64,000 bases of DNA from a virus (lineage: Duplodnaviria; Caudoviricetes), in IMG/VR virus record IMGVR_UViG_3300031857_023573, positions 96,001 to 160,000 of that record, one strand, 5' to 3'. Below the pieces are notes generated by a model. It worked only from the letters and a program-made list of their open reading frames with translations. It was not told the origin of the DNA and ran no database searches. Below, piece after piece: positions 1,075 through 53,312 of the stretch; within the stretch, counting starts at the first letter, position 1, and every line of letters starts with the position of its first letter. A program made the translations under genes and the position numbers.

Positions 1075-1866
1075 TTAAATAGAATACAAGTATTCAAATC
1101 TAAATTGAAACTTTTTTAAAGTATCTGGATTTAAATCAAAGTAGTTTGGAAGCCAACCTTCCAGTCTTGACCACTCTTCCCTTGTAACGTCACCAACAGG
1201 ATAAGAGTCACAAAGTACTTTACATACCAATCTTTCTTCAGACTTTGCCCACTTAAATATTACATTTTCACCCATTTTAAACTTCTCAGATCGTGTAGTT
1301 GCAGTTCTTAACCCTAGTTTTATTGCTTCAAATGTTGTATAGACACCTCTTTCTAGTAATTCATGTCTAAATTGACCAGGTACTAATTGACTATGACCTA
1401 ACTTATTATGCTCATAGCTCATCGATAGCTCTTTAGCATTTTTTAGCTCGGTTGGTTTAGGTACTATTTTACCTAGTTCATTATGATATCCGAACTTTTT
1501 AAGAAGAATATCACACAGAAAATCGTAAGTTTTTGGTGCTTTTTCTTTTAATTTAGCTCTATCAGTTCCATAACCGCCTTCTGAAAATATTATAGTCGCA
1601 CCAAATAGAAGTTCGTCTAAGATTTTGTTTATATCTTCTAATATTTTCTTTTTATTACTTTCAAACTCCTTATCTGTATAATAGGCACCTTTATCTGTAG
1701 ATGGTTTCTTTTTTGTTCTAATACCGATTGTATTAGGCTCGTTTCTTATAATGGCCTGACCACCCAAACCAGATCTTTGATCATTATCACCATAGACATA
1801 GATTTTCTGAGGATTTTTTGCAACATCTTCTATACCCCAGAATCCTTTAAAAACTTGTATCATCAT
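1075..1866 (-). CDS. Two-domain protein: N-terminal phage-type YVxGDN..GGQA..IR domain plus C-terminal ASCH-like domain
   Basis: IYVYGDNDQRSGLGGQAIIRNEPNTIGIRTKK; C-terminal FEAIKLGLRTATTR resembles the ASCH IxxGxKTATxR motif. Confidence 0.5.
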   Translation of the reverse strand: MMIQVFKGFWGIEDVAKNPQKIYVYGDNDQRSGLGGQAIIRNEPNTIGIRTKKKPSTDKGAYYTDKEFESNKKKILEDINKILDELLFGATIIFSEGGYGTDRAKLKEKAPKTYDFLCDILLKKFGYHNELGKIVPKPTELKNAKELSMSYEHNKLGHSQLVPGQFRHELLERGVYTTFEAIKLGLRTATTRSEKFKMGENVIFKWAKSEERLVCKVLCDSYPVGDVTREEWSRLEGWLPNYFDLNPDTLKKFQFRFEYLYSI

Positions 1867-2197
1867 TGAGAACCTTTTTTAGCTGAAGGTCTCTTAGTTT
1901 TTGTTTTATGGCTGTATCGCTTACCCCATCTGAAATAACTTCGAGAACCTCATTACATCTATTTATTAGATTTTCAAAATTATTAAAATTCACAACTCCA
2001 GGATTTGCCGAATATTTCGAGCCTTGCCAGATAACGTCTACCTTATTAATTTTATCAGCAAGGATCCAAGTGGTAACATTATCAAACGAGAACTGGTGTC
2101 TAATTGATTCGAGTGTTTCTCTAGCCTGGTTGCGAGTCAGATCAGTAATATCAACATAGATTACGAATATAGGATTTTCTAAATTTAAACTACTCAT
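1847..2197 (-). CDS. Hypothetical protein with C-terminal LRDLQLKKVL motif
   Basis: ORF track 1847..2227; ATG 2197 preferred because it gives ATGA coupling to the infC stop. Confidence 0.7.
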   Translation of the reverse strand: MSSLNLENPIFVIYVDITDLTRNQARETLESIRHQFSFDNVTTWILADKINKVDVIWQGSKYSANPGVVNFNNFENLINRCNEVLEVISDGVSDTAIKQKLRDLQLKKVLNDDTSF

Positions 2198-2739
2198 TTC
2201 TTCTTGGGTTTTAAGACCATGTGCCATCTAGAACCCTCAAGTTTTGGCATCGTTTCTGGAACTCCAAGTGACTCTACAAGTGTTGCAAACTTCAACATAA
2301 CCAACTGACCTTTGTCTGCCATATGATGTTGACGACCTTTGAGTAGAAGTGACAATTTTACTTTATTTCCTTCTTCTAGAAACTCAGAAGCCTTTTTAGA
2401 TTTGACTTCTAAATCATGGTCTGCTATATTGACAGAAAGTGAAATTTCTTTAACTTCAGATTTTTTTTGATTTTTCTTATTCTCTTTTTCGCGTTTTTCA
2501 ACTTCATATAAAAATTTACCGTAATCTTCAATTTTAACAACTGGTGGATTGGCATTTTCCGATATTAGAATAAGGTCTTTTTCATTTGCCTCGGCAAGTT
2601 TTGAAGCTTCATATGAAGACATTATAGCTCCTTGGCCTATTTCTCCAGTCACACGAACTTGTGGAAATCTTACTTCACCATTGATTTTGTGTTTTCTCTC
2701 TTTTAATGGAGGTCTTTTTCGATTATTGTTATTGTTCAT
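2194..2739 (-). CDS. infC: Translation initiation factor IF-3
   Basis: IF3-N (KINGEVRFPQVRV...PPVVKIEDYGKFLYE) and IF3-C (VKEISLSVNIADHDLEVK...KVKLSLLLKGR...PKLEGSRWHMVLKPK). Confidence 0.93.
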   Translation of the reverse strand: MNNNNNRKRPPLKERKHKINGEVRFPQVRVTGEIGQGAIMSSYEASKLAEANEKDLILISENANPPVVKIEDYGKFLYEVEKREKENKKNQKKSEVKEISLSVNIADHDLEVKSKKASEFLEEGNKVKLSLLLKGRQHHMADKGQLVMLKFATLVESLGVPETMPKLEGSRWHMVLKPKKK

Positions 2740-2984
2740 AAGTTATTACTTCAAATGCAGAAAGTCCCTGAGCTATCTCTGGACTTAAAAATTAAGATAT
2801 TTCTTTTTATATTGACTTCGGCCATTTAAAAATGAGAATTTGGTTGATAGATAGTATCAACTGTGACCAAACTATTTAGATTTCTATTCATCTTTAAGAT
2901 ATAACGCCAATTATATTATCTAAAATTTAAATTGTTTAAAAATTTAAAAAAATATTAATGTATATATTGGGAAAAATAAAGAAG

Positions 2985-3240
2985 AAAAGAGGAACTTCTG
3001 TCAAGTACGGTCGAAATCCGAGAACCTAATTCTTGACTTTTAGTGGTCTTACCACTTGGGATTGCCTTTTAATGGTTTCATCAACCTTGGTTTAGCAGTG
3101 TTACCATTCTGCTTATTTTTCTTCCTTAACAGTAGTTTTTAAATTGTTTCGTTTAGTCTCACACTGTTATAGAGTCTAAATTTATCGGCTTTTTTATAAT
3201 TACCTATAAACGTTACCGAACCGCTTGTAGTTCACCTTTT
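2985..3240 (-). ncRNA. Candidate structured ncRNA downstream of smpB (closing stem plus two putative pseudoknots); class unresolved
   Basis: No ORF of 60 aa or more. 5' AAAAGGUGAACUACAAGCGG pairs with 3' CCGUACUUG..AGUUCCUCUUUU. Hairpin 3152-3180 has a loop complementary to 3127-3133. Hairpin 3094-3113 has a loop complementary to 3071-3076. G-U wobbles favour the minus strand. Confidence 0.45.
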
Positions 3241-3376
3241 ATTTTGTTAAATATGTTTACTATTTACCACGATGGTTCATGATTTTTCATCAAAGGCGTA
3301 AACTTATTAACTCATTACTTACCATCATATAATACAAGACTACTTCAAATAGTAAAAATTCATCTTGTAATTTTTG

Positions 3377-3808
3377 TTACAAATCATTTCTTCTTAGATC
3401 TCTATCAGTATCTCTTTTCTTAATATCTTGTCTTTTATCCCAGTCTTTTTTTCCACGACAAACTCCCATTTTTACTTTGAATCTACCATTAACAGTAAAG
3501 ACTTCAAGTGGAATTAAGGTGATACCTTTAGTCTCGGTCAATTTTGAGATTTTAGAAATTTCTTTTTTATTTAAAAGTAATTTTTTATCTCTAAGTTCAT
3601 CGTGATTTTGAAGTGATGATTCTTTATACTTTGCGATACTAAGGTTTTTAACCCAGAGTTCACCATCTTTAAAATAAATGAATGAATCTCCGAAATTAAG
3701 ACTGTTTGATCTTAAAGACTTCACTTCTGAACCAACAAGTACTAGTCCAGCTGTGAAGTCTTCGATCACTTGAAAATTAAAATATGCTTTTTTGTTTACG
3801 ATCTTCAT
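3377..3808 (-). CDS. smpB: SsrA-binding protein SmpB
   Basis: NKKAYFNF..EDFTAGLVLVGSEVKSLR...RDKKLLLNKKEI...TLIPLEV..GKKDWDKRQDIKKRD. ATG 3808 preferred over the track start 3829 (TATATTAG at 3817-3824). Confidence 0.95.
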   Translation of the reverse strand: MKIVNKKAYFNFQVIEDFTAGLVLVGSEVKSLRSNSLNFGDSFIYFKDGELWVKNLSIAKYKESSLQNHDELRDKKLLLNKKEISKISKLTETKGITLIPLEVFTVNGRFKVKMGVCRGKKDWDKRQDIKKRDTDRDLRRNDL

Positions 3809-3852
3809 AATAATTGCTAATATAAACAAAAATATCTAAATTAAAAATTATT

Positions 3853-5163
3853 TTAATATCTATATTGTTCAGATTTGAAAGGTCCTTGAGAACTAACTCC
3901 AATATATTTTGATTGTTCCTCGGTGAGAATATCTAGTTCGCATCCGATTTTCTCAAGGTGTAAAAATGCTACTTTTTCATCTAAATGTTTTGGTAGAGTA
4001 TAAACCTTATTTTCATATTTATCCGAATTAGTCCACAATTCTATTTGTGCGAGAGTTTGATTAGTGAAAGAGTTACTCATTACAAAAGATGGGTGACCAG
4101 TTGCACATCCAAGATTAACTAATCTACCTTCAGCTAGAATAATTATATCTTTGTTATCTATTGTGTACTTATCAACTTGAGGTTTGATAGTGTCTTTTGT
4201 CGATCCGTAATTTTTATTAAGCCAGTTCATGTCTATTTCGTTGTCGAAGTGACCAATATTACAAACTATAGCATTGTGCTTCATCGACTTAAAATGTCTG
4301 TCGATTATGATATTTTTATTACCAGTAGCGGTGACAATAATGTCCGCCATTTTGACAGCAGTATCCATTTTTAATACCTGATATCCATCCATTGCTGCTT
4401 GAAGTGCACAAATAGGATCAATCTCAGTGATAATTACTCTAACACCTTGTGAAGAGAGTGACTGTGCTGAACCTTTACCGACATCTCCATAACCAGCAAC
4501 AACCGCAACTTTACCAGCCATCATAATATCAGTTGCTCTTCTTATTGAATCTACTAGTGATTCTCTACAACCATACTTGTTATCAAACTTTGATTTTGTT
4601 ACAGAGTCATTGATATTTATTGCTGGTGTATAAAGAGTGCCATTTTTTACTCTCTCATGTAGTCTCAAAACACCAGTCGTAGTTTCTTCGGATAATCCTT
4701 TGATTCCATTAACAAGTTCTGGATATCTATCAAATACCATATTAGTAAGATCTCCGCCATCATCTAAAATCATATTGAGTGGTTCTCCACCTTCAAAAGC
4801 GAATAGTGTTTGTTCAATACACCAATCAAACTCTTCTTCAGACATACCTTTCCAAGCATAGACGGGAATACCAGCCTTTGCGATGGCAGCGGCAGCATGA
4901 TCCTGAGTTGAGAATATATTGCAAGAAGACCAACTTACCTCAGCTCCCAAATGTTTTAGAGTTTCTATTAGAACTGCTGTTTGAATTGTCATATGTAAAC
5001 ATCCGGCAATTCTGCTTCCTTTTAATGGTTTAGTGTCACCATATTCTTTTCTAAGAGACATTAGTCCAGGCATTTCTAGCTCAGCCAGTGCAATTTCTTT
5101 TCTTCCCCATTCTGATAAGGAAATGTCTTTTACTTTAAATTTTTGTGATAAAGTTTGATTCAT
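3853..5163 (-). CDS. ahcY: Adenosylhomocysteinase (SAH hydrolase)
   Basis: [82 protein letters not shown]. Confidence 0.97.
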
Positions 5164-5519: not shown

Positions 5520-6113
5520 TTATTTATACATTTCATCAAGAATTTCAAATTCTCGACTGGTTTCACTAATTAGTATAGCTCTCCCATTTCTGATTTGACT
5601 CTTAATGGTACTAAGATTTTTTCCTAACTGGTCTGCAATATCTTTATATTGCATTTTTTGAATTTCTCTCATTTCAATTACTTGACGATAAGGTTCTTTC
5701 AAGTTTCTGATGTGACGCTTCATGATTTCAGCCTTTTTTGTGTTCAAATCATGTAGATACTCCTCTGATTCTTCTTCTTGAATGAAGTCTTTCATAGTGG
5801 TTCCTTCTTCATCAATTTCTATATCAAGAGACATAGTTTTTTTGGAATTTTTGATGTCTTGTAACATCAAGTTTCTTGCTATTGTAAATAGCCAAGTTGA
5901 AAATTGTGACTTTTCTTTTTCATACTTATCGATCTTCTCAAATGCGATAAGAAATGAATCTGTTGAAATGTCTTGAGCTTTTTGTTGATCATTACACATT
6001 CTAGATGTGTAGTAGATTAATTTTGGGTAATACTTCTCGTAGAAAAAAGAGAAGTCTTTACCTGTTCGTTCTCTAAAGAGTTGTTCTTGTTCTGGGAAAA
6101 ATGTTGAAATCAT
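5520..6113 (-). CDS. ECF-type sigma-70 family RNA polymerase sigma factor
   Basis: Region 2 (AQDISTDSF..AFEKIDKY...FSTWLFTIARN) and region 4 HTH (MQYKDIADQLGKNLSTIKSQIRNGR). Confidence 0.87.
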   Translation of the reverse strand: MISTFFPEQEQLFRERTGKDFSFFYEKYYPKLIYYTSRMCNDQQKAQDISTDSFLIAFEKIDKYEKEKSQFSTWLFTIARNLMLQDIKNSKKTMSLDIEIDEEGTTMKDFIQEEESEEYLHDLNTKKAEIMKRHIRNLKEPYRQVIEMREIQKMQYKDIADQLGKNLSTIKSQIRNGRAILISETSREFEILDEMYK

Positions 6114-6246: not shown

Positions 6247-8073
6247 TTATTTTAAAATTTCTTCTAAGTCTTGCACAGTAATGGTTTTAATACCAAGTTC
6301 TTGAGCCTTCTTTTCTTTAGAAGATCCAGATCCTGTAACTTTCATAACAAGATGTGTTGTGTTTTTACTAACGCTACTTCCAATTTTACCACCTCGAGAT
6401 TCAATAACTGATTCTAAATCAGGTCGTCTTACTCCAGTAAATACAAATGAAGTGCCAACTAAATCTACAGAAACTTGTTGAATAACCTTTTTTTGTTCAA
6501 TAGTAATAGGAAGATCTTTAACAAACTCAAAAAATCTGTCATATCCATCGATATAAGATTGAGCAGAAATATCAGCAAATCCTTCAATTTCTAGAACCTG
6601 ATCGATGCTAGGTTTAGTATTAAAGTGCTCAAGTAATGCTAGTTTTTTACTACCAAGTGCTCTAAAGATACCAGTAGCATGTTGGAGCTTAGAGAGACTA
6701 ACACTTGAAGTTGCCTTTTTGATAGAGTTAATTACAATTTGAGCCTTTCTTTTTCCAAAACGGTCAATTTTCTCTAAGTCTGACTCTGTAAGTTTTAGAA
6801 TATCCTCTATCGTTTTATGTCCAACATCCCAAAGTTGTTTAATAACACCTTCTCCAAAATTATCTGTCTCAAGTATTTCAAAAAATGAAACAAGTTGTTT
6901 AAATTTCTGATCGTCAGTTTCATTAAGTGTAACAAGTTCAACTCCATTCTCATTCCAATCAATATTTGGAATATCAGGCATTCTAAATTCAACTTTTTGA
7001 ATTACATCTGCAATAATCGGAATTACCATTCCAGATCGCTTTACTAAAACTTTAGCTCCGACACCGAGTCCCATATCTTTTACAAAACGAGCATTATTTC
7101 CAGTCACATTTGAAACGGTCACACCATCAAGTCGAACTGGTTTGATATGTAAAGTTGGTTTTAGATATCCTTGTTTTGAAATATTCCAAGAAATATCGAT
7201 TATCTCAGACTCAGCAGATTGTTCAAAACTTGGATGTTTGAATGCTCGAGCCCAAACAGGGTTATTAGATGATGTTTCACGGCCTAATTTATTCTGTAAA
7301 TTAAGATCATTAATTTCAATAATAAGACCATCAATTTCATATTCTAAACCAAACTTATGAAATAAACTTATGAGCAATTCTTCTGTAAGTTCGGATATCT
7401 TACAAATATGATACTGTACTTTAATTTCTTGACAGGTATTCAATGACTCGATCAAATCTTGTTTTGTCGAGAAGCAGTCTTTATTGAAAACTGCACCATA
7501 TTTAATAAAATTGCAATCTTTAAGAGACTGTTGTGTATCCTTTGAGTTCAAAAGACCAGCGACTAAGTTTCTAGGATTGGCAAATTCTTGAGAATACTTA
7601 TCAGTAAATGTCTTTTTAGACATCATGACCTCGCCATATGTGAAGTCAAATTCTTGACCATTTGAATTAAGATGGTTGCCAATCAGTTTGTAGTGTTCAT
7701 TTGATTTTTGACCAAATTGTCCATCACCACGAGTGAAAGCATCATTAGTCTTTTCATTTACACAAAGAGAAAGTCCATCAAATTTAGGAGTTATAACAAC
7801 AAATTCAGATTTTGAAATCCCTTTGAGTCGTGACCAATCTTCAATATCATCAATTGATTTTATTTTATTCATTGATGCCATTTCAATCGGTAGACGACTT
7901 TTGCGAGATTCGTCTTGAATTTCATGTCCTACTTTTGCTAGTATTTCATTTTCAGGATCAAGAGCTTTCAATTCATCTACTAAAATATCATATTGAGAAT
8001 CTGACATAATTGGTTCACCAAGACGATATTTTTGATTGGCTACTATAATTTTTTCTACTAGTTCGTTAATCAT
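6247..8073 (-). CDS. ligA: NAD-dependent DNA ligase
   Basis: Ia domain Y..GEPIMSDSQYD, KFDG motif, TRGDGQFG, ANPRNLVAG, DGLII, OB fold, HhH repeats and BRCT (FVFTG); no Cys4 zinc finger. Confidence 0.93.
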   Translation of the reverse strand: MINELVEKIIVANQKYRLGEPIMSDSQYDILVDELKALDPENEILAKVGHEIQDESRKSRLPIEMASMNKIKSIDDIEDWSRLKGISKSEFVVITPKFDGLSLCVNEKTNDAFTRGDGQFGQKSNEHYKLIGNHLNSNGQEFDFTYGEVMMSKKTFTDKYSQEFANPRNLVAGLLNSKDTQQSLKDCNFIKYGAVFNKDCFSTKQDLIESLNTCQEIKVQYHICKISELTEELLISLFHKFGLEYEIDGLIIEINDLNLQNKLGRETSSNNPVWARAFKHPSFEQSAESEIIDISWNISKQGYLKPTLHIKPVRLDGVTVSNVTGNNARFVKDMGLGVGAKVLVKRSGMVIPIIADVIQKVEFRMPDIPNIDWNENGVELVTLNETDDQKFKQLVSFFEILETDNFGEGVIKQLWDVGHKTIEDILKLTESDLEKIDRFGKRKAQIVINSIKKATSSVSLSKLQHATGIFRALGSKKLALLEHFNTKPSIDQVLEIEGFADISAQSYIDGYDRFFEFVKDLPITIEQKKVIQQVSVDLVGTSFVFTGVRRPDLESVIESRGGKIGSSVSKNTTHLVMKVTGSGSSKEKKAQELGIKTITVQDLEEILK

Positions 8074-16715: not shown

Positions 16716-17084
16716 ATGGGTGATCTCACAAATATAAATTTACTAATATTATTTAAAATATTTAAAGATAGACCACATCATTTATCTAGATTCCTTATTG
16801 AGAATGGTGCTTTTAATCAGAGTTTCCTTGATAGACTTAATAAAAACGGAAAATTGTCAGAAATAAAAAATATTGAAGAAATAAAAAAAGACTTTGATAA
16901 TATTGATGATATGAAGGAATTTTATTCTTCATTAATTAACTCACAAACACCTAGAAAAAAGACTAGTTCTGAAATAACTACAGAAATTAATACTAAAATT
17001 TCGACTGCCATAAGTAATGAAAATTATGAAGAAGCTGCCAGACTTAGAGATTTTCTCAATAAATTAAATCAAAAAAAAAAATAA
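16716..17084 (+). CDS. Protein with C-terminal UVR (UvrB/C) motif
   Basis: AISNENYEEAARLRDFLNKL matches the UVR coiled-coil consensus. Confidence 0.65.
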   Translation: MGDLTNINLLILFKIFKDRPHHLSRFLIENGAFNQSFLDRLNKNGKLSEIKNIEEIKKDFDNIDDMKEFYSSLINSQTPRKKTSSEITTEINTKISTAISNENYEEAARLRDFLNKLNQKKK

Positions 17085-25016: not shown

Positions 25017-25229
25017 ATGAATACAATTGAAGACGTTGTTCAACAAATTGGTAGAGAATACGTTGAAAAAAGAATGGAAATCGAAGGAATTTGGCAATTT
25101 GAATTTGATACCTCAAAGAATAGAAAATTGAAACAAGTTCAAATAGATGAAATAGATAGAATTTATAAAGAAAAGCTCAGAGAGCAAAAAATAGAACATA
25201 TTTTATATGATACCGTACTTAGGAAATAA
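25017..25229 (+). CDS. Hypothetical protein with C-terminal LREQKIEHIL motif
   Basis: ORF track. Confidence 0.6.
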   Translation: MNTIEDVVQQIGREYVEKRMEIEGIWQFEFDTSKNRKLKQVQIDEIDRIYKEKLREQKIEHILYDTVLRK

Positions 25230-36000: not shown

Positions 36001-39000
36001 GGGTTAACACATATGGATTTCCTTTTGTGCGTGCAAATCCAATAACTCACTTAAATCTTGGTGATACATATAGAGTCACTGTAAATATTGGGTCACTTAC
36101 TGTTGCTCAGGCAATAGACAGAGAAAATGTTGGAATTCAGATAAGTCTTGGAAGACCGGGTTCTGCTGGTGCGTATGGTGAAACATCAGGTACTTATGAA
36201 GGTTCACTATACCCTCTTTTTAAAGATATAGTTTCTGCAGAGGATTTTGTGAGTCCACACAGAAGAATTATAGATTTAGAAGGTCACACTGGTGCACTAG
36301 TTGATAGTGCTGTTATACCAGGAATTGATGGCTGGATTGGTAGTGGTGGGCAAATGACTGAAACTCTTATAGCAAGAGATAATGCGACTCTCTACTTACA
36401 CTTCAATCTATATGGAGTATCACAACTTACAATTGATAGTATTGTTGTAGAAAGAGTAATTTGTACAACTGCTGCTGAAATAAACGAGGGATATACTTCA
36501 GATATTATCACAAATATTGCGAAATACAGACAATCAATTGGTGATACATCTTATCAAGAAATATTTATAAATAATGCATTTACTTTTAGTATAGATGCTA
36601 GCTATCCAGATATTACTGGATCACCTGATGTTGATTCAACTACATTTACACAATCAAGCACTGTAGCAGAAACTTGGGAGTTTTTGAATAATTATACATA
36701 TTATCCAGTTCGACAAAGCTACGCAGTATCTTCGGGTGGTGCAAAAGGTGGTGGTGTATCATATATTCAAGTCAACAATGCATCAAGTGTTCAAACAGAT
36801 GGTCCAATTTGGCGATCTTTTTCACCAGCTACCAATTGGCTATATGTTGTTGATGAAAATTCAAGTATAGATATTTTTACAGCATCTGGTGAGTATGAAA
36901 TCACTTTTAGATATAGTTTTGGATGGTCAGATCCCAATGAGACACCAACTCAAACAAGTTATGGTGTGAAATTTAGAGTAGAAATAGGATATATTGAAGT
37001 TGGTGGTGTTCCTTTTGATAATGGTGGTATAAGAGAGCAATTTGATTCAGATGTTATTCCACTACCTGTAGCATCAGTCAGTGGTCCAAACATTTTGGGA
37101 TTTTTCACTGTTAATCCGACTGCTCAATATTATGCAGATGGTATGATAAGAACTTACACTACAATATTCAATCCCTCTGTGATAACAGAGACTTCTGACT
37201 CTACAAAATGGATGAGATTTAAAAAAATGAATATTGGAGGCATTGGTAGTCGAGTTGATGTAAGAATACATGGAATAACAATTACTAAAAAATCAACGCA
37301 GTATGACAATCAGTTTAATAATGCGACATATTCTTTATTAGCTGTTGATCCATCTTATGATGACGTATTAACATTGCCAAATTACTCTAAAACTGGTGTA
37401 GCTACCAATGGATATGTTGTATCAACAAGATTTGGAAACGGACTGTTCGTATCAGGAACTGGTTCTGCTCCGTCCTCTATTTGGGAGAATGGGGTGTGGA
37501 ATGATGGTTTAAGATATGACAAAAATGTTGTTGTGTTTACAGATTTGAGTAAATTATCCGGCAGTGATAAATCTGATGCAAGACAAGCAGAGTTTGAAAT
37601 TAAAGGAACTAGAGTTGGTACTATTCCGAATACTCGAGATGATAATTTCTCAAGAGTGAAATATTCTACAAAAAATTGGTTAATAACACTTGATGCTGCT
37701 GAGGGATATATTCAATTTGAAAACTCGTTAATTGACCAAAGTGGTCTAAATATAAATTATTACTTTAATGTTGGTGATAAAGTAAGTGTTGGTAATATTA
37801 TCTCAGTAGATATAAATGGAAAAAGAAAACTAATCAGAGATTATTTTACAGTTGTCGCGATAACAAGAACAACAAAAACTGATACAATTAACCCAGTTTG
37901 GCAACTTATACTTAGTATTTCAATAAACTTTCCTATAAGGACAATAGAAAGGGATTCTGTAAATCATCCAATCTATGTTTCAAAAAATATTTGGCTGAAT
38001 GGGGCTTACTTAAACGGAACATTTAGAGGTATATGGACAAACGGACTTTTCAAAGGTAGACCTTACCTAACAAAAATGATTGATAGTCAATGGATAGATG
38101 GTCGATTTGATGGTGGTCACTTTAGAGGAAAAACAGCATCTATTATCGATAATATACTATCAGATACGCCTGAAGTTGAAGTATTCCCGTCTGGACTAAT
38201 ACAGAATTTTATATTTAAAGATAATAATATATCAGGTCGACCTTTTGGATTTCTTTATAACTCTTGGTTAGAACTAAATTATATCACGACACAAGCCGTT
38301 AATCTCGGGAAAAATGAACTGATTTCGAATGTTTCAACTAGAGTAGATAGAATAAATTACGGTATCCGAGTGCCAAAATCAAATACTTGGTCTATAAATA
38401 ATTACTACGGATATCCGACAAAAGATATCTTATCTAGTATTTCATATTTCAGAAACGGTGACGATCTAAATATACAGGCCTATAGTCTAGGTTGGAAATT
38501 TAAAAGATATGAACAATTTATACCAGATAATGGTGAGTTTTTGAATCCATTCGACAATTATGAAGAAACGAGAACCGTTACCTCTGAAGGTATTGCTGTA
38601 CAGGAGCAGGGTGTCTCCGAATATCCGGGTATGAAAAACTTTTTTGATCAAGGATGGACTTTTTCTACTAGATTAAATCAGCTCGGGTGGCGTACCGAAA
38701 TACCCGGTGGTGATTCTAGGACACTTTATAGATTTTCTTCTAATACAGAACAACCCTATCCAATAAATGAAAGTGGAGGGTATTACGGAGTTCCGGACGA
38801 ATCAGGCTATAACTTATCAAAAATGGTAGTGCAATTAAATAATCCAATTTTAGCTTTTGATGGATACGCCGATGATATCGAGTCTGAAGTGGGTCAAATA
38901 AGGCTTGATAATACTTACACAAAACTGCCAAGGAATAAGTATACAATTTTAGAATTCAAACTAGACTTCAAAGGAGCTACATTCTCTAATGATTTATTTT

Positions 39001-39734: not shown

Positions 39735-40462
39735 TCCTTTTTAAGCTTTAGAATTAAATCTCCGACTTTGCCCGGCTCATTTTTAGAAAAATGACCCATG
39801 TGTTTTATAATAGTCTCGTCTTTCTCTTTTTCCAATTTAATTTTAGTAAGTTTTTGCTTGCCTAAAATTCTTTTATCTCCTTTACAGGTTTGACAGTCTT
39901 TGCTTCCTAATTTTCCTTGACCGAAACAGAAAGAACATTTATTACCAAATGGATCTTTTCCAGATCCTTCGCAAAAATCACATCCATCATCAGAATCGAA
40001 GATCCCCTTAACATTGCCTTCATCATCTTTAATAACAAATTTGCTTTTTAAGTCTTTTCCTGTGCCATTACAAGTTTTACAAATGACCCATCTTTGATAT
40101 TCTATTGTTCCAGAGAAATTATTATCAACTATCTCAACTATGTTCAAAACTTGATTCTTTTTGAAATCTTCGTATTTTTTATTCTCCTTATCAAAATCAA
40201 AATCAACTGAAACTACATAAAGTTCTTCTAGTTCATTGTAGTCTTTTCCCCATTTACTCTTTCTATCATATTCAATCCTAAGTTCACTATTTGATAAGAC
40301 ACTATAAGCTTCAGAAATAGAGTTAAAAAGTTCAGTATCAACACCAGAATTTTTATCCGGATGATATTCAAAAGATAGTTTGTAGTAGGCCTTTTTTATT
40401 TCTACATCAGTGCTTTGATGTTTGACTCCTAAAACTTTATAATAATTAGTTTGTAAATTCAT
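39731..40462 (-). CDS. dnaJ: DnaJ-family co-chaperone (J domain plus four CxxCxGxG-like motifs, shortened C-terminus)
   Basis: NYYKVLGV..YHPDKN; CKTCNGTG, CDFCEGSG, CSFCFGQG, CQTCKGDK. Confidence 0.88.
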   Translation of the reverse strand: MNLQTNYYKVLGVKHQSTDVEIKKAYYKLSFEYHPDKNSGVDTELFNSISEAYSVLSNSELRIEYDRKSKWGKDYNELEELYVVSVDFDFDKENKKYEDFKKNQVLNIVEIVDNNFSGTIEYQRWVICKTCNGTGKDLKSKFVIKDDEGNVKGIFDSDDGCDFCEGSGKDPFGNKCSFCFGQGKLGSKDCQTCKGDKRILGKQKLTKIKLEKEKDETIIKHMGHFSKNEPGKVGDLILKLKKD

Positions 40463-40858: not shown

Positions 40859-41056
40859 TTAAAACTCCTCTTCTTGTCTTTTCTTTTTTTCTAAATAAAT
40901 TGCCTTTTTAACTTCGTCTCTTCTTTGTACAGATTTTTTTGTATAACTCTGTCTGTTTCTAAGTTCCCTAAGAACTTTAGTGCTATCAAATTTTCTTTTG
41001 AATTTTTTTAAAGCTCTTTCAATAGTATCTTTACCAGTAACTTCAATTATTATCAT
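40859..41056 (-). CDS. rpsU: Ribosomal protein bS21 (Bacteroidota type)
   Basis: MIIIEV..DTIERALKKFKRKFDSTKVLRELRNRQSYTKKSVQRR...KAIY; 65 aa. Confidence 0.92.
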   Translation of the reverse strand: MIIIEVTGKDTIERALKKFKRKFDSTKVLRELRNRQSYTKKSVQRRDEVKKAIYLEKKKRQEEEF

Positions 41057-41325
41057 AAGATTGTTTTTAATTTTATATCTCTAATTAGTTGATTTCTTTC
41101 TGCTTCTGACATTTTTTTAAAGTCTTCAAATTTTATATCAAATCCTAGTGCAGCCAGTACAATCTCAAAAAAACTAGTAAGATCCTTATCGATAGATATA
41201 TTAGTGTCCCAAGTTCCTCCTCCACTTGAGTACACCAAATGACTCCCAGACGTGAGCGTTGTTCCACTTATAACCCCGGTGTTTATTGAACTAGCAATAT
41301 TTATATTATTATAGGTATTTGACAT
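41053..41325 (-). CDS. Hypothetical protein ending in IRDIKLKTIL
   Basis: ORF track; AATATATA at 41334-41341; ATGA coupling to rpsU. Confidence 0.7.
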   Translation of the reverse strand: MSNTYNNINIASSINTGVISGTTLTSGSHLVYSSGGGTWDTNISIDKDLTSFFEIVLAALGFDIKFEDFKKMSEAERNQLIRDIKLKTIL

Positions 41326-41347: not shown

Positions 41348-41617
41348 TCACTTAAAGTTCAAAACTTGCTCAAGTTTTAAATTTCTCAAGTTTTCCTTGA
41401 TATTTATAACAAATAGATTCATAGAATCAACTTTGGATACGCCACGATATGTCATTTTAATTATTTTACTATCAAAACTTTTTATAATCGGGTAGGTATC
41501 TTCAGGTAGTTGTTCAACTGTCCATATTGGCAACATTTTATCAATATCAAATCTGATATTATAGTCTGTGTATTCTACAAACCTACCATCTATACTATAT
41601 TTTACAAGCACCTCCAT
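41348..41617 (-). CDS. Hypothetical protein with C-terminal LRNLKLEQVL motif
   Basis: ATG 41617 (MEVLVKY), just after the gp46-like stop, preferred over track start 41647. Confidence 0.65.
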   Translation of the reverse strand: MEVLVKYSIDGRFVEYTDYNIRFDIDKMLPIWTVEQLPEDTYPIIKSFDSKIIKMTYRGVSKVDSMNLFVINIKENLRNLKLEQVLNFK

Positions 41618-41618
41618 T

Positions 41619-43322
41619 TTATTGCTCTTCGATATGCAATTCTTCAATAGTTGAAAATACTTCTTTGTTAACTCTAATTATTCTATCGAACATCTCTTGA
41701 TTCAATACAGCGTGATGTACTACAAAGATATTAACGTTATATTGATTTGAGAATGATTTCAAAAGACCAAGTATTTTTTGAATATTTTCTAAGTCAACAC
41801 TTGAAAATACTTCATCTAAAAACAAGATGTTAATATGTTTTTTTGTTCTAATAAGCATTAAGTAAGCAGTTAAAATACAAATATTGGTGAGTTTCTGCTC
41901 ACCTGTACTTAGACTCTCAGAGTCAATTACAGAACCAAGATGTTTGATTTCAGCATTAAAAGTCTCATCAAGTGAAACTTCAAAATGCATACCCATTTTC
42001 TTAATATTTTCATTAATGAAGAAGTTAATAGGCTTAATTATTCCTGCAATAATTGATTTTTTGACACCATCTTCACCAAATATTCTGTTTAGTTCTTTAT
42101 AATAAAGCTCTTTATCTTTACAAAGAGATGAATTATTCGAAGATACTTTTTTCTTTTCACTAAGTTCGTTTATCGCATTTTCAAATTCTTGAACATTCTC
42201 TGATGCCTTACCGTCTTCTCTTAATTGTTTGTTTTGTAATTTTTCAATCTGTAACTTACAATTTTTCAAATAATAAGTCATATCATTAAATGCTTTAAGA
42301 GCATTGTCTGATATTGGTTGTAATTTGAGTTGTTTTTCTTTTATAGATTTTATATTTGATTCGAGTTCTACTTTGATATTTTCTAAAGACTGTTTTTTCT
42401 CTAAAAGAGTTCCCCTAAGTGCGATAAAATGTTCAGAGTCAAAATCTGTTTTACACATTGGGCACTTTCCAGAATCAAAAAGATCAATTTCTTTTTGGAT
42501 TGATTTAATATCAGTCTGTAAAATAATATACTGACTTTTCTCTTGATCTATTTCTTCTTTTAATTCTATATCTTTAGATTTTATTTTTTCAATTTTTTCT
42601 TTAAGTAGTTTATATTCTTCTTTTTTGGACTCCATATCCGATTTGATCTTGTCAATCTCTACTTGAGTATTCTCTTTTTCCTTCTCAATTGCTTTAGTTA
42701 TTGAATTCTGAATTGATTGAATAGACTCATTAAGTGTGGATATCTCTGAATCTAGAGATGCCATTCTAATTTTATTATTCTTATTTAACTCTTTTAATAT
42801 AGAATTTAAAATATTGATTACTTCTAAATTGAATAGTTTATCTAAAAGAAGTTGTTTTTCTTCATTTGACAATGAGATAAAGTTCTTGAACGAGTCAACA
42901 CTCATAGACATGAAAGACTTGAATGTTTCAATATCCATTCCAATATAGTCTTCTATCTTTTCATCAATATTAGATTTTCCAGCTCTTTCATTTAATACAC
43001 CGTTCTCCCAGATTTCTAGAACATTTGGAGAGATTCCTCTTTTAACTTCAATATTAGTTCCTTTAGATTTAAATTTTATGTCTATCAACATCTCACCACC
43101 ATTAATCCTGTTTGGTAAAGTTGAAAGAGTTGCCCACTTTTTTTTTGATCCTGAACATTTACCATACAAAGAGAAGTCAACTGATCTTAGTAATGTTGAC
43201 TTTCCAGCACCATTTTGACCGACTAATAATACTAAATCCCCTTTTTCAGTATTAAGCTTTATAGATTGTCTAGAGTTTCCAAAAGATTTGAAGTTCCTTA
43301 TTCCAATTTCTTCTATTAACAT
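41619..43322 (-). CDS. SbcC/Rad50/T4 gp46-like recombination endonuclease ATPase subunit
   Basis: Walker A GQNGAGKST, coiled coils with CPMC zinc hook, signature LSTGE, Walker B FLDEVFSSVD, H-loop VVHH. Confidence 0.92.
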   Translation of the reverse strand: MLIEEIGIRNFKSFGNSRQSIKLNTEKGDLVLLVGQNGAGKSTLLRSVDFSLYGKCSGSKKKWATLSTLPNRINGGEMLIDIKFKSKGTNIEVKRGISPNVLEIWENGVLNERAGKSNIDEKIEDYIGMDIETFKSFMSMSVDSFKNFISLSNEEKQLLLDKLFNLEVINILNSILKELNKNNKIRMASLDSEISTLNESIQSIQNSITKAIEKEKENTQVEIDKIKSDMESKKEEYKLLKEKIEKIKSKDIELKEEIDQEKSQYIILQTDIKSIQKEIDLFDSGKCPMCKTDFDSEHFIALRGTLLEKKQSLENIKVELESNIKSIKEKQLKLQPISDNALKAFNDMTYYLKNCKLQIEKLQNKQLREDGKASENVQEFENAINELSEKKKVSSNNSSLCKDKELYYKELNRIFGEDGVKKSIIAGIIKPINFFINENIKKMGMHFEVSLDETFNAEIKHLGSVIDSESLSTGEQKLTNICILTAYLMLIRTKKHINILFLDEVFSSVDLENIQKILGLLKSFSNQYNVNIFVVHHAVLNQEMFDRIIRVNKEVFSTIEELHIEEQ

Positions 43323-43529: not shown

Positions 43530-43777
43530 TCAACCATGTTTTCAAAAGGTTCACACTGTTCTATTATAGACTTCATAAGTGGTAGATAATCTGAGTGTTC
43601 TTCTATATATGACCCAAGAGCTTTTATTAGACTGTCATCAACGGTCAATAACATTTTATCAGCAGTATAGTAGAAAATCGAGTCATGATATGTGTCTCTA
43701 TACATCAAACCAATAGATACTAAAATCCCACCTTCGAACTTTCCAATATAATCAATTATTGATCCGGTTATTTCCAT
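43496..43777 (-). CDS. Hypothetical protein (93 aa)
   Basis: ORF track. Confidence 0.65.
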   Translation of the reverse strand: MEITGSIIDYIGKFEGGILVSIGLMYRDTYHDSIFYYTADKMLLTVDDSLIKALGSYIEEHSDYLPLMKSIIEQCEPFENMVDQLQDIETSEE

Positions 43778-43982
43778 CTAAAATAAGACCTAATTTTTCA
43801 TCTCGGATATTTTTTAAATATCCATTATTGTTTAATGTGTTGAATAAAGATGTAGATATACCTTTTCTGCCCTCTTCATGTGTGTAAATCATATCTCGAT
43901 AATAATCATGTATTTTATTCGCAGTTTCTTTATCTAAAGAGTTTATCTTTTCTAAATCTAAGTAGTATTGTGTTAAATCCAT
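43752..43982 (-). CDS. Hypothetical protein with C-terminal IRDEKLGLIL motif
   Basis: ORF track. Confidence 0.65.
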   Translation of the reverse strand: MDLTQYYLDLEKINSLDKETANKIHDYYRDMIYTHEEGRKGISTSLFNTLNNNGYLKNIRDEKLGLILDGNNRINN

Positions 43983-46687: not shown

Positions 46688-47893
46688 ATGAATATTAAAG
46701 AAACATTTTTACAACTAACCACACGAACTTATCCACATGGATATGAACACCAGCTTTTTGATAAGCTCCCACAAAACCTTGAAATGGATGAATTTGGAAA
46801 CCTTTTTATAAAAATTGGTGACAGTGATGTAATGTTCACTTCACACCTTGATACCGCGACTTCAGCGCTTACTACAGTTAATCACGTCTTTGAAGGAGAC
46901 ATAATCAAAACTGATGGTAAATCTATACTCGGCGCAGATGATAAAGCAGGTGTTACAATTATGCTCTATATGATCGAAAACAAGATACCCGGTCTTTACT
47001 ATTTCTTCTTAGGTGAAGAAGTTGGATGTCTTGGTTCTAAGAAAGTTGCTGAAAAACATCGTCAAGAAAAACTTGACTATATCAAAAAGGTTATTTCTTT
47101 TGATCGTAGGGGTACAGATTCAGTAATAACATTTCAATCAAGTTCAAGATGTTGTTCTGAAAAATTCGCAACAGAACTCTCTACTCAGCTTAACTTGGTC
47201 AATGATGGTTTTAAATACAAGAATGATCCAACTGGTATCTACACAGATTCTGCACAATTTGTATCAATATATCCTGAATGTACCAATATTTCAGTGGGTT
47301 ACTACTCAGAGCACACACACAGTGAGCGTCAAGATATTGCTCACTTAGAGAAACTTGCAAAAGCATGTTTAAAAGTTGATTGGTCTAGTCTACCTGTAGA
47401 AAGAGATCCCGGAAAAGTTGAATACTCTTCAAGTAGTTATTCTGGTTATGGATACGGATGGGGATCTTGGGAAGACTATTCTTCTGGATATCGATATGAA
47501 GAAAAGACATATACGTCAACTAAAAAAGATGATCAAAAAGTTACTTTCTATGATGAAGAATATAGATATGTAAGTGATATTACAATTAATACATCAACTG
47601 GTGATATCAAAGATGTAAATCTTGCACCGGAAAGAGTTCAAGAAGAAAGAAGACTCATTTCTAATTTCTTGGAAGATCTAGAACTTGAGTATACTAGTTT
47701 TATTTGGAATGGTCTTAAGCTCTCAGTTTATTATAAAGACGGAAGAGTAACTGATGCAAGTAGACTTGAATTGGAAGAGTATATCAGTGAACTTGATGTC
47801 ACTAAATTAATTGATAGTTGTGATGAAAAAGAGTATCAGAACAATCTGAGACTTTCTGACAGAGATTGGTCTGATCTTGAATATTGGTATTAA
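46688..47893 (+). CDS. M28/M20-family zinc peptidase-like protein
   Basis: FTSHLDT, LGADDKAG, GEEVG, SFDRR, YTDS, GYYSEHT. Confidence 0.8.
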   Translation: MNIKETFLQLTTRTYPHGYEHQLFDKLPQNLEMDEFGNLFIKIGDSDVMFTSHLDTATSALTTVNHVFEGDIIKTDGKSILGADDKAGVTIMLYMIENKIPGLYYFFLGEEVGCLGSKKVAEKHRQEKLDYIKKVISFDRRGTDSVITFQSSSRCCSEKFATELSTQLNLVNDGFKYKNDPTGIYTDSAQFVSIYPECTNISVGYYSEHTHSERQDIAHLEKLAKACLKVDWSSLPVERDPGKVEYSSSSYSGYGYGWGSWEDYSSGYRYEEKTYTSTKKDDQKVTFYDEEYRYVSDITINTSTGDIKDVNLAPERVQEERRLISNFLEDLELEYTSFIWNGLKLSVYYKDGRVTDASRLELEEYISELDVTKLIDSCDEKEYQNNLRLSDRDWSDLEYWY

Positions 47894-48887: not shown

Positions 48888-49175
48888 ATGGATTCTTTTA
48901 AGAATATTTTAATTTTTAAGATATTATCAAAATATCGTAGTATGAGAGAAACTTACGCACATCAAGGGTTCTTTTATTTTGAATCAAATATTTCAAAAAT
49001 AGATAGAATCGGTAATGGTTTTTTATATAATCATGAAGAGATTCCACCTCTCGACTGGAGAAAACTAAAGGGTAAAGAACTTTATAAAGTATATCGAGAA
49101 TTATCAAATCGAAATTTCTATTTTTATAGAAACATAAACGGTAAATTCTACAAAACAAGACCGAAAAAAACTTGA
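48888..49175 (+). CDS. Hypothetical protein
   Basis: ORF track 48840..49175; ATG 48888 avoids head-to-head overlap with the divergent gene. Confidence 0.5.
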   Translation: MDSFKNILIFKILSKYRSMRETYAHQGFFYFESNISKIDRIGNGFLYNHEEIPPLDWRKLKGKELYKVYRELSNRNFYFYRNINGKFYKTRPKKT

Positions 49176-49891
49176 TAAAATTAAATTACACATATAGTCT
49201 AGAATATGATTACCTCATGACTTACTCCTGTGAGACCAATGGCTGTAACGAAGAAGGTATTTGTAGGTGTGGTAAAATCGTAGATGAACATGTTGTATCT
49301 GTCGACCTTTCCTTAGTAACAGATGAAATTTACGACCAGTTATACCCAAGAGATAATAAATCTAGCAAAAGAGAAAATAAACTGTCTGAAATATTCTATG
49401 GAGGTGAGAAAGTAGATAAGTACTGTATCTATAGAATTCTTGTACAAAATAAGGCATATGACACAGAAAATTGGAGAGTAAATATCTCAAGTGGCTACTA
49501 CGGTGATGAAATTGAAGATGTCACTATGGATTTTGAAATGTACAAAAAGATTGATGATCAATGTCAAAAATTAAAAGAATTTACAACTTTAAAAGATAAA
49601 ATAGACTATGTCCTACTTTTAGAATATGGTCACCTATTAGAAGATCTAAAGGATGTTGATTATGAACTTATAGCAATTTATAAAAACCATATTGATTTTA
49701 AAAAACTTAATCAAAATCATATTAAAAATGTTAAGATGAAGGATTTGAATCACTATTCTTATACTAATTACATTCTACCAAGAGGTATTGTACGTGGTGA
49801 CACTGACAACTATAAAATAGTAGACGGATATCATAGAATTATTGCTAGTGATAGTAAAATTCCTTTTCTAGTCTTCCGGGTAAAAAAATAA
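49172..49891 (+). CDS. Protein with C-terminal ParB/Srx-like motif
   Basis: YKIVDGYHRI; TTG start. Confidence 0.55.
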   Translation: MIKLNYTYSLEYDYLMTYSCETNGCNEEGICRCGKIVDEHVVSVDLSLVTDEIYDQLYPRDNKSSKRENKLSEIFYGGEKVDKYCIYRILVQNKAYDTENWRVNISSGYYGDEIEDVTMDFEMYKKIDDQCQKLKEFTTLKDKIDYVLLLEYGHLLEDLKDVDYELIAIYKNHIDFKKLNQNHIKNVKMKDLNHYSYTNYILPRGIVRGDTDNYKIVDGYHRIIASDSKIPFLVFRVKK

Positions 49892-50947: not shown

Positions 50948-50955
50948 TATATTTG
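50948..50955 (+). promoter_or_regulatory. Bacteroidota-type -7 element TATATTTG
   Basis: Exact TAnnTTTG 14 nt before ATG 50970. Confidence 0.55.
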
Positions 50956-50969
50956 TAAAAATAAGCAAA

Positions 50970-51317
50970 ATGGATACTATCACATTAAACCCAAAAAACT
51001 TTAAACTTATCGCCGGTGATTTTATTTCTGAAGATTCCTTTGCAGATAAGATTTACGAAGAATCTGGTTCATTTTGTGACAATGCTCAGTGGATGAGCTT
51101 TAAGTGTGGTGAATTAACAATTGATGTTAATTATGAAATTAGTGTAAGTGGTTCAATTTTTGAAGATTCTGGTGACTACTGGACACCTCCAAGTTGTGAT
51201 GTAGATGTTGATGATGTAGATGTAACTATTTCTTCTGTTTCGATAAATGAGGATGATGTTGAATTAAGTGATGATCTTAAAAAAATATTTCTTAAAGTAG
51301 TCAATAATAATTTATAA
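50970..51317 (+). CDS. Hypothetical acidic protein
   Basis: ORF track. Confidence 0.65.
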   Translation: MDTITLNPKNFKLIAGDFISEDSFADKIYEESGSFCDNAQWMSFKCGELTIDVNYEISVSGSIFEDSGDYWTPPSCDVDVDDVDVTISSVSINEDDVELSDDLKKIFLKVVNNNL

Positions 51318-51320
51318 TAT

Positions 51321-51769: not shown

Positions 51770-51773
51770 CATC

Positions 51774-52286: not shown

Positions 52287-52337
52287 CTATAAAATAAACT
52301 TTTAAAAAATTAATAATAAAATGTATGTGTTGTTTTT

Positions 52338-52396
52338 GAATGTAGTAAGTTGTATATCGTTATCCATTATCTTCTTCTCAAAAATTTGCTACATTC
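52338..52396 (+). ncRNA. Candidate small RNA: 14-bp stem with 31-nt pyrimidine-rich loop
   Basis: GAAUGUAGUAAGUU pairs with AAUUUGCUACAUUC (two G-U pairs valid on the plus strand), followed directly by a terminator. Confidence 0.4.
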
Positions 52397-52400
52397 TGGG

Positions 52401-52435
52401 AAAGACCCTTCTTTTTGAGGGGTCTTTTATCTTTT
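52401..52435 (+). terminator. Rho-independent terminator
   Basis: AAAGACCCTT-loop-AGGGGTCTTT then a T-rich tail. Confidence 0.7.
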
Positions 52436-52471
52436 CTAAACTGTACTAATTACAAATACAAATACTTTAAG

Positions 52472-52975
52472 ATGAAACTAGAAATAGAAAGAAAGTTTTT
52501 ACTAAAAAGTCTTCCTAAAATTCAACCCACTCAGTCAATTAATATAGATCAATATTATTTTAAAAATTCATCTGGTATATGGGAACGTGCTCGTACCTGG
52601 GAAACTGATGATGGTGAAATAAAATATATTCATACTATTAAAAAAAGTGTATCTAAAGGGGTAAACATTGAAGATGAATATGAGATGTCGGAGTCTGACT
52701 ATGGTAAATTTGTATCAACTTGTCGCAAGTCTGTAGTTGATTCAAAATTTATTAAAAAAACCAGATATATATATCCAGATGGAGAGTTAAAATGGGAAGT
52801 TGATCTATTTCACGGTGATTATAAATTAATTATCGCAGAAATTGAAATCCCAAAAAAAACTTACAAATTAACAGTACCTGATTTTATAAAAGATGTTAGT
52901 CTTTTAGAAGTCACTGGATTAAAACAATTTAATAACAGAAGTCTATCTATTAAGATTGATAAAAATGCAAATTAA
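52472..52975 (+). CDS. CYTH-domain protein (triphosphate tunnel metalloenzyme)
   Basis: LEIERKFLL (ExExK), K.RY, WEVDLF, IAEIEI; ATG 52472 preferred over track TTG 52415. Confidence 0.85.
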   Translation: MKLEIERKFLLKSLPKIQPTQSINIDQYYFKNSSGIWERARTWETDDGEIKYIHTIKKSVSKGVNIEDEYEMSESDYGKFVSTCRKSVVDSKFIKKTRYIYPDGELKWEVDLFHGDYKLIIAEIEIPKKTYKLTVPDFIKDVSLLEVTGLKQFNNRSLSIKIDKNAN

Positions 52976-53312
52976 AGTCTTAAATAAAATTTTTGATTGT
53001 ATAGATGGTTCGGTTCAACTTTCATTTGGATCACATGCTACTATAGATTTGAATTTTGATATAAATCAATGTCAATGTTATGACCATTTTATTAAAATTT
53101 ATGAATCAAACGCTAAATTTGAAATTGAGTCTAAAACCTTTTTAGGAAAGGGTTGTCACATCAAAGCTTTTGATATTGACTACAATCAAAATAGGATGAA
53201 TATTTCAATACATTGTGATTTACTCAATCCTATCGACTTGCAAATAAGACGAGAAGATTTTTTGAACGATATACTTACTAAAACTTTTATTAATAAAGAC
53301 GATATAAATTAA
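52965..53312 (+). CDS. Hypothetical protein with RREDFLNDIL motif near the C-terminus
   Basis: ORF track; ATG 52965 preferred. Confidence 0.6.
   Translation: MQIKVLNKIFDCIDGSVQLSFGSHATIDLNFDINQCQCYDHFIKIYESNAKFEIESKTFLGKGCHIKAFDIDYNQNRMNISIHCDLLNPIDLQIRREDFLNDILTKTFINKDDIN

Follow-up and report, generated by a model that had tools for sequence, protein, structure and literature searches.

A short C-terminal helical tag on many unrelated small proteins of a megaphage clade

Why should small phage proteins that have little else in common end in the same short peptide? This question was raised by a stretch of 64,000 nucleotides from a phage of the Caudoviricetes (Duplodnaviria), positions 96,001 to 160,000 of the IMG/VR record IMGVR_UViG_3300031857_023573, which is called the window below. 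A first-pass annotation of this DNA had listed five strict copies of a motif of the type IRDxKIxxIL at or near the C-termini of predicted proteins, and had proposed a portable address tag on an amphipathic helix, by which many small proteins are docked onto one receptor. The window contains about 30% G+C and is 95% coding, with tightly packed genes, and its phage is a member of a megaphage clade with a genome size of roughly 640 kb. The SbcC-like protein encoded at 41619-43322 on the minus strand is 66-67% identical to the versions of LR745206.1 (634,780 bp) and LR756502.1 (642,428 bp), both complete 'uncultured phage' genomes, 43% identical to that of LR756504.1 (636,363 bp), and about 30% identical to those of LR756501.1 (735,411 bp) and of the Prevotella Lak phages. 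The LR records are presumed here to fall within the group of megaphages reported by Al-Shayeb et al. (2020). All genome-wide counts were obtained from the relatives LR745206.1, LR756502.1, LR756504.1, LR756501.1 and Lak-C1, which were analysed in full; their genes were called by a simple greedy open reading frame (ORF) procedure, and Lak-C1 was read with TAG as a sense codon.

The comparison of C-termini with controls, which had been suggested together with the original claim, came out clearly in its favour. The strict pattern was found in 29 proteins of LR745206.1 and in 24 proteins of LR756502.1, against 0.08 in shuffled sequences and 0 in reversed proteins. With a relaxed pattern, 69 and 63 matches were identified, respectively, 59 and 52 of them within 10 residues of the end. 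Using a hidden Markov model, 88 of the 971 proteins of LR745206.1 and 93 of the 995 proteins of LR756502.1 were found to be tagged near the C-terminus. Of the profile matches scoring at least 8 bits, 147 of 163 lie within 10 residues of the C-terminus, compared to 13% expected (binomial p ~4e-110). The tag is real, is explained neither by chance nor by a nucleic-acid signal, and falls outside every named family.

In the window, all five strict copies were found where they had been listed, 0-8 residues from the stop codon, and their scores with a profile built from the relatives are 10.4-14.0 bits. Shuffled window proteins gave no match in 200 trials. LRDLQLKKVL (1868-1897, minus strand; 10.4 bits) lies 6 residues before the stop codon of gene 1847-2227. 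Homologues of this gene begin at the Met at 2197, which corresponds to a protein of about 116 amino acids (aa), and 21 metagenomic homologues keep the tag as LR[DN]LQLKK[IV][ILF]. The highest-scoring copy, LREQKIEHIL (25176-25205, plus strand; 14.0 bits), is found 7 residues before the stop codon of the 70-aa gene 25017-25229, which directly follows the gene for an M16 peptidase and has no homologue in the three tag-bearing relatives. IRDIKLKTIL (41056-41085, minus strand; 12.7 bits) ends a 90-aa protein encoded by 41053-41325, with the stop codon directly after the tag; the gene overlaps the bS21 gene 40859-41056 by ATGA, and in 27 homologues of this carrier the tag is nearly invariant and the N-terminal 40 residues are variable. 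LRNLKLEQVL (41360-41389, minus strand; 11.1 bits) is located 3 residues before the stop codon of gene 41348-41647, which codes for 99 aa or less. Finally, IRDEKLGLIL (43779-43808, minus strand; 11.8 bits) lies 8 residues before the stop codon of the 76-aa gene 43752-43982, for which homologues were identified in LR745206.1 (54% identity) and in LR756504.1 (37% identity, with the C-terminal end IREEKIKAVL).

Three looser copies had also been listed, and these were dropped, since their scores are no better than those of matches in non-coding frames, which reach 2-3.4 bits in the same search. KRENKLSEIF (49172-49891) scored 3.2 bits, and RREDFLNDIL (52956-53312) and IREIALSSIF (19139-19834) scored below 2 bits. 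A proposed resemblance to the UVR motif likewise does not extend beyond the tripeptide L-R-D. The hydrophobic positions of UVR are 1, 4/5 and 8, following [YF]E.AA, whereas those of the tag are 1, 6, 9 and 10. With the Pfam UVR model (PF02151) at E values up to 0.1, none of the five window carriers was matched, while ORF 16716-17084 and the ClpC-like protein of the window were. On these two grounds, the missing Pfam match and the different spacing, a relationship to UVR was rejected.

The statement that the carriers share nothing else was borne out by the domain searches. Four of the five window carriers have no Pfam match at 0.01 or below, and none has one at the curated cut-off. In the relatives, as many as 157 BLAST clusters were obtained when the N-terminal parts of 185 carriers were grouped. 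Among the 70 largest carriers, only two have a Pfam domain, one being a riboflavin kinase and the other a weak Fe-S match, and PHROGs also matches two. The tag was seen on the riboflavin-kinase fusion, on proteins of 622-731 aa and on proteins of 51 aa. In general, the carriers are short (median 98-114 aa), soluble, with a hydrophobic segment in 6%, and clustered along the genome. Their genes are coupled to the upstream gene in 60-69% of cases, compared to 31-40% for other genes.

The consensus of the tag reads [K]-[S/Q]-x-[IL]-R-[DEN]-x-K-[IL]-[ND]-x-[IV]-L, in which the ninth tag residue is at times also L, and the whole element spans about 10-13 residues. Information content is limited to positions -2 to +10, and over 110 carriers nothing is conserved upstream of -2. 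In the 16 columns of alignment A2 the Arg is invariant, the seed pattern having had a fixed Arg, and the Lys is conserved at about 90%. In LR745206.1 and LR756502.1 the tag is followed by 0-8 polar residues (mode 1), rich in D, K, N and E. About 15% of the good copies are internal or N-terminal. Drawn on a helical wheel, positions 1, 2, 5, 6, 9 and 10 would share one face. An AlphaFold2 model of the 90-aa carrier places the tag at the end of the last helix (residues 74-89), with a predicted local distance difference test (pLDDT) of 80-91; this helix is part of a confident three-helix unit, and the N-terminal 40 residues are disordered. For the 126-aa product of 1847-2227, the tag is also found at the end of the last helix (residues 104-120), in an alpha/beta model of low confidence (pLDDT 49) which was used for secondary structure only. 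When the carrier model was compared to the PDB with Foldseek, only insignificant matches (E of 3.6 or higher) to three-helix domains of the villin-headpiece type were obtained.

The peptide itself is retained by selection. Synonymous codon choice equals genome usage at every conserved tag position (for Arg, for example, AGA 77% versus 73% and CGT 7% versus 7%), which shows that selection acts on the peptide, and the DNA of the five strict window copies differs at synonymous sites. A homologue in LR756502.1 was found for 35% of the LR745206.1 carriers, compared to 47% of all proteins of that genome. Where a homologue exists, the tag is kept, with an identity of 0.57 in the tag and 0.41 in the remainder. 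Of the 13 homologues scored as untagged, 12 have a degenerate copy, R-x-x-x-[IL]-x-x-[IL]-[LIM], at their end. No other segment is as well conserved as the tag in the two families for which many metagenomic homologues were available.

The spelling of the tag is specific for the lineage. In LR756504.1 a variant was identified, typically ..E-[Y/H]-R-K-x-x-I-x-x-L-L-COOH, and its triad R...I..L occurs at 110 C-termini, compared to 2.6 expected, with up to 176 proteins by a loose pattern. This genome also contains long tandem arrays of carriers, such as the one at 221-27387, with extra shared residues upstream of the tag. In LR756501.1, no tag of the IRDxKIxxIL type was found. An observation of its own is that about 41-43 proteins of this genome, 55-843 aa long, bear an unrelated tag at the C-terminus, ..DPYGEE[DEN]W[DNS]x-COOH (for example, 145582-146127 and 499642-503452). 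Unlike the IRDxKIxxIL class, it is neither exclusive with an N-terminal leader nor depleted behind TAATATATA. For Lak-C1, no strong C-terminal tag was detected in the genome-wide analysis of C-termini.

The leader and the motif just mentioned separate the tagged genes from a second class of genes. De novo analysis of N-termini identified a leader, MK[YH][LI]K.[YF]E.F, in 51-79 proteins of LR745206.1 and LR756502.1. It resembles the capsid-targeting sequence (CTS) of phage T4, and related forms exist in LR756504.1 and LR756501.1. In the window, genes of the leader type were noted at 21548-22096 (plus strand; MSHLKRFYEF..) and 22107-23072 (plus strand; MKIKGYNQF..). Leader and C-terminal tag occur together on one of the 1966 proteins of LR745206.1 and LR756502.1, compared to 12 expected (p = 6e-5), and on none in LR756504.1, compared to 10 expected (p = 2e-5). 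In LR745206.1 and LR756502.1, the share of genes with a motif of the TAATATATA type within 40 nt is 56% for leader genes, 22% for other genes and 2% for tagged genes; in LR756504.1 it is 69%, 16% and 1.7%, respectively. When whole gene runs are considered, the motif stands in front of leader units in 77% of cases, of other units in 32% and of tagged units in 8% (p = 1e-14). In the window, it is found in front of the genes at 8162, 30048 and 44301, which are large and look structural, and of the two genes of the leader type at 21548 and 22107. With the T4 late promoter TATAAATA as an analogy, this supports its reading as a putative late signal. The carrier gene 41053-41325, upstream of bS21, is among the few tagged genes with such a motif.

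Beside the leader, an M16 peptidase of the pitrilysin/MPP type was noted at 23908-25014 (plus strand). It is half-size, has an intact HxxEH zinc site (HLMEH at 34-38) and lies behind a late-like motif. The peptidase is conserved in LR745206.1, LR756502.1, LR756504.1 and LR756501.1, and because this distribution is the same as that of the N-terminal leader, it may be a candidate for leader processing.

What the tag does has to be judged from these features. Six conserved residues on one helical face suggest that it would most likely dock in helical form, and that the one common partner would offer a groove which is hydrophobic and contains acidic residues. The tagged genes form a class of their own, consisting of small, soluble, fast-evolving orphans in tightly packed, translationally coupled runs. 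As they lack both a late-like promoter and a leader resembling a capsid-targeting sequence, the partner would act in the cytoplasm of the infected cell and not in the capsid. Since the spelling drifts between lineages (IRDxKIxxIL versus [EY/EH]RKxxIxxLL), the reader would most likely be encoded by the phage and would co-evolve with the tag. In the preferred mechanism, the tag might be a tether or degron for the phage's own N-domain-less ClpC-like unfoldase and ClpP, which would give a timed turnover of pre-late accessory proteins or would make the carriers exchangeable substrate adaptors. Of the first-pass proposal, the portable, protein-level helical tag on many unrelated small proteins has held, and is more pervasive than had been noticed; the single receptor is a matter of inference, as are the helical docking mode, the cytoplasmic location and the Clp link. 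That the tag is a docking element with one common reader is considered likely. The Clp version of the docking is a possibility of rather low probability, and the explanation as a whole, a co-evolving phage partner in the cytoplasm with Clp machinery preferred, can be offered only tentatively.

Genes for a Clp machinery are present. The window codes for a ClpC-like double-ring AAA+ unfoldase at 53330-55453 (plus strand), identified by Pfam and by its sequence, with an M-domain of the UVR type, a VGF loop at 560-562 and no N-terminal domain. In place of the Clp N-domain, the protein begins with an acidic tail of about 45 residues, with a run of Asp, which is probably disordered and is missing in LR756504.1. 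ClpC-like genes exist in LR745206.1, LR756502.1, LR756504.1 and LR756501.1 and are absent from Lak-C1, and the three tag-bearing relatives encode 2-3 ClpP paralogues alongside the ClpC-like protein with its VGF loop. Judged by sequence, the ClpC-like protein is a candidate reader only. At the position of the window gene 41348-41647, after sbcC, the relatives encode unrelated small UVR-motif proteins with tag-like ends (IREIKLKQLGIK and IRELKLNDVIG), at 296085-296384 in LR745206.1 and at 320919-321134 in LR756502.1. In the small protein of LR745206.1, the tag is joined to a UVR motif that shares 46% identity over 39 aa with the ClpC-like protein of LR756502.1 and is also matched by the M-domain of the window ClpC-like protein. 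These UVR-plus-tag proteins may be taken as a weak hint to a Clp link. A complex prediction for the ClpC-like protein and residues 41-90 of the 90-aa carrier (score 0.00, no controls run) counts neither way.

Other readers were sought by phylogenetic profiling and domain scans. Thirty-eight genes are common to the three tag-bearing genomes and missing from both LR756501.1 and Lak-C1. Ten of these were annotated, among them PrkA, an FKBP, a methyltransferase, RNase II/R, a 2H/exonuclease fusion and an AAA_33 kinase, and none was compelling as the reader. A reader domain fused to the tag was also looked for in nine proteins whose copies are internal or otherwise not terminal, and Pfam matches were found only in a UvsW-like helicase. 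Hsp70 was discarded, being encoded by all five megaphage genomes checked, the tag-less Lak-C1 included; tubulin was found in none of the five; and the M16 peptidase is also present in LR756501.1, which has no such tag. A separate observation concerns the complete PrkA/YeaH (DUF444)/SpoVR triad, which was identified in the three tag-bearing genomes (LR745206.1 480112-484920, LR756502.1 273831-277142 and LR756504.1 112167-120589) and is absent from LR756501.1 and Lak-C1. Its distribution fits that of the tag. PrkA is 65% identical between LR745206.1 and LR756504.1, and SpoVR of LR756504.1 may carry an intein-like insert.

Several points weigh against a phage-encoded Clp partner in the cytoplasm. 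No reader of the tag was identified by the profiling and the domain scans. The co-occurrence of the ClpC-like gene and the tag amounts to a single phylogenetic event, and the tag is missing from LR756501.1 although a ClpC-like gene is present there. The polar tail of variable length, and the roughly 15% of copies that are internal or N-terminal, do not fit a degron that is recognised at its free carboxyl end. In the 90-aa carrier, the hydrophobic face could be partly structural, because the tag ends a helix of the confident three-helix unit in the model. The gene calls are greedy ORF sets, and the terms 'late' and 'non-late' are assigned from a sequence motif. Tagged units are also not significantly enriched for the host-type TAnnTTTG box (19% versus 16%), which is why the tagged genes are termed 'non-late' here and not 'early'.

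The host-type box itself was noted in the window as a recurrent CCTTATATTTGTA / TATCTTTGTA element that matches the Bacteroidota sigma-A -7 consensus TAnnTTTG. It is located upstream of 6247-8073 (minus strand), 46688-47893 (plus strand), 50970-51317 (plus strand), the pair 19836-20507 (minus strand)/20565-21533 (plus strand) and 28659-29936 (minus strand). By its sequence, it is probably a host-type (early) promoter class and would point to a Bacteroidota host.

Among the alternatives to a phage-encoded partner, docking onto a conserved host hub, for example, the sliding clamp, RNA polymerase, the ribosome or a chaperone, survives best, although it is rather unlikely. On this account many early phage proteins would converge on one host site. 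The carriers do look like host-takeover or anti-defence genes, being small, orphan, fast-evolving and not late, and the tag is spelled differently in lineages whose hosts may not be the same. Clamp-binding motifs and PIP boxes are familiar examples of short motifs at protein ends that bind a hub. However, no replication or transcription domain was found in any of the 70 largest carriers, in which they differ from classical clamp clients, and the tag has neither the aromatic pair nor the Gln of PIP and clamp motifs. A motif of the PIP-box type (Q-x-x-h-x-x-aromatic-aromatic) is also not matched at tag positions 9-10, which are I/V/L and L. In addition, about 90 different binders of one host site are hard to rationalise.

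An explanation without any external reader, in which the tag is the last helix of one or a few hyper-diverged paralogue families that arose by tandem duplication and survives for folding or self-association, is unlikely. Carriers do occur in tandem runs, with 19-21 adjacent pairs compared to 8 expected; the arrays of LR756504.1 share residues upstream of the tag, and in the 90-aa family the tag belongs to a confident three-helix unit. Common descent is nevertheless difficult to reconcile with the lack of any conservation upstream of -2 over 110 carriers, and with the presence of the tag on the riboflavin-kinase fusion and on proteins as different in length as 622-731 aa and 51 aa. The two AlphaFold2 carrier models differ in secondary structure, the second being of low confidence, and self-pairing is disfavoured by the basic residues at the centre of the conserved face.

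Loading into the virion or capsid, for which the tag would do at the C-terminus what the T4 capsid-targeting sequence or the cargo-loading peptides of encapsulins do, is improbable. Huge capsids can hold many internal proteins and the carriers are small, and encapsulins, in which short terminal helices load cargo into shells of the HK97 fold, offer a precedent. However, the same genomes already have the T4-CTS-like leader on its 51-79 proteins, 56-69% of them behind the late-like motif, and the tag excludes this leader, with only about 2% of tagged genes behind the motif. One tagged protein is, moreover, a riboflavin kinase fusion. The capsid had been named as a possible destination in the first-pass annotation, and this is disfavoured, since exclusion of the leader and depletion behind the late-like motif make a docking or turnover tag in the cytoplasm more likely. 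In the last alternative, what is conserved would be a nucleic-acid element at the ends of genes, for example, a promoter or a signal for translational coupling, and the peptide would merely result from it. This would fit a tag located 0-27 nt before the stop codon in carriers of which 63-66% are followed by a closely coupled gene (39-40% for other genes). It is, however, largely refuted by the codon usage and can practically be set aside. The five window copies differ at synonymous sites, a coupled gene downstream is lacking for one third of the carriers, the tag is not at a constant distance from the stop codon, and internal copies exist.

Compared to known systems, the tag fails the defining features of each family tested and is classed among terminal docking or targeting peptides. 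It has in common with the T4 capsid-targeting sequence (IPI-III and Alt) that an address peptide of about 10 residues is attached to otherwise unrelated phage proteins. The T4 sequence is N-terminal, is carried by late proteins and is cut off by the prohead protease, whereas the tag is C-terminal (147 of 163 matches within 10 residues of that end), is found on genes without a late-like motif and is mutually exclusive with the CTS-like leader. Late co-expression also does not apply, as far as timing can be read from the motif, with about 2% of tagged and 56-69% of leader genes behind TAATATATA.

Closer in anatomy are the adaptor tails and degrons of AAA+ proteases, like the XB peptide of SspB (LRVVK, for ClpX) and ssrA, in which a short conserved C-terminal peptide follows a variable body, and the phage has genes for ClpP paralogues and for a ClpC-like unfoldase, in which a VGF loop for docking to ClpP is present. 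The anatomy of the carriers fits a tether of the XB type. The XB tail, however, binds the N-domain of ClpX, whereas the phage ClpC-like protein has no Clp_N and only the acidic 45-residue tail. For an ssrA-like degron, unfoldase and peptidase are on hand in the three tag-bearing relatives (the ClpC-like protein with its VGF loop and 2-3 ClpP). The ssrA degron needs a free non-polar C-terminus, whereas the tag is followed by 0-8 polar residues rich in K, D, E and N, and 15% of the copies are internal, with N-terminal copies as well.

Encapsulin and microcompartment cargo peptides are also short amphipathic terminal helices, which dock diverse cargo onto one shell protein; the conserved face of the tag differs from them by the invariant Arg and the Lys at its centre, and the expression class of the tagged genes argues against head assembly. 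The ankyrin proteins of poxviruses combine a diversifying N-terminal part with a conserved C-terminal handle, the PRANC or F-box-like domain, which plugs into a degradation machine. This domain comprises about 40-50 aa and binds host Skp1, whereas the tag has only 10-13 residues and the candidate machine is encoded by the phage. In the literature on huge and jumbo phages, C-terminal motifs and targeting sequences, no published description of such a tag was found. New here are its scale in complete genomes, the LR756504.1 variant, the selection at the protein level, and the separation from the leader and from the late-like class.

The window further codes for IF3, a sigma-70-family factor, an NAD-dependent ligase, S-adenosylhomocysteine hydrolase, an S1-domain protein and the M16 peptidase, and also for a Dam methylase, a DnaJ-like protein, bS21, an M28 peptidase, a CYTH protein and the ClpC-like AAA+ protein. 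On the minus strand lie the genes for IF3 (2194-2739), ribosomal protein bS21 (40859-41056), a truncated DnaJ consisting of the J-domain and the zinc-finger region (39731-40462) and the sigma-70-family factor (5520-6113). The S-adenosylhomocysteine hydrolase gene (3853-5163, minus strand) has no homologue at the syntenic position in LR745206.1, LR756502.1 and LR756504.1, and is probably a recent acquisition in the lineage of the window. At 30048-39734 (plus strand), a protein of 3228 aa without Pfam match is encoded, in which repeats of the G-x-F/W-x-N-G type are abundant and which has a late-like motif upstream. Its homologues in the relatives comprise 1324-2912 aa and are only 22-38% identical, over parts. 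A role as a giant fibre or structural protein is probable.

About one protein in ten in this phage and its relatives ends in one common helix. In the largest known phages, orphans which cannot be annotated make up about 10-18% of the genes, and the tag places about 90-170 of them per genome in one functional class. For this clade, it can serve as a marker for annotation and classification in metagenomes. With its 10-13 residues, it is also an experimental handle, for example, as a bait, in reporter fusions or for an in silico screen against the phage proteome. The identity of the reader would show what a large part of the 'dark' early gene set of megaphages plugs into. The clean separation from the leader suggests that proteins are sorted by at least two address codes. 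In a stronger form, which is not a likely one, two mutually exclusive codes would operate in parallel, with an N-terminal leader for late, head-bound cargo and a C-terminal helix that plugs about 90-170 small proteins into a phage-encoded hub, for example, the ClpC-like protein and ClpP, as an adaptor library or as effectors with timed turnover. If true, this would be a viral analogue of the F-box adaptor families, so far undescribed in phages.

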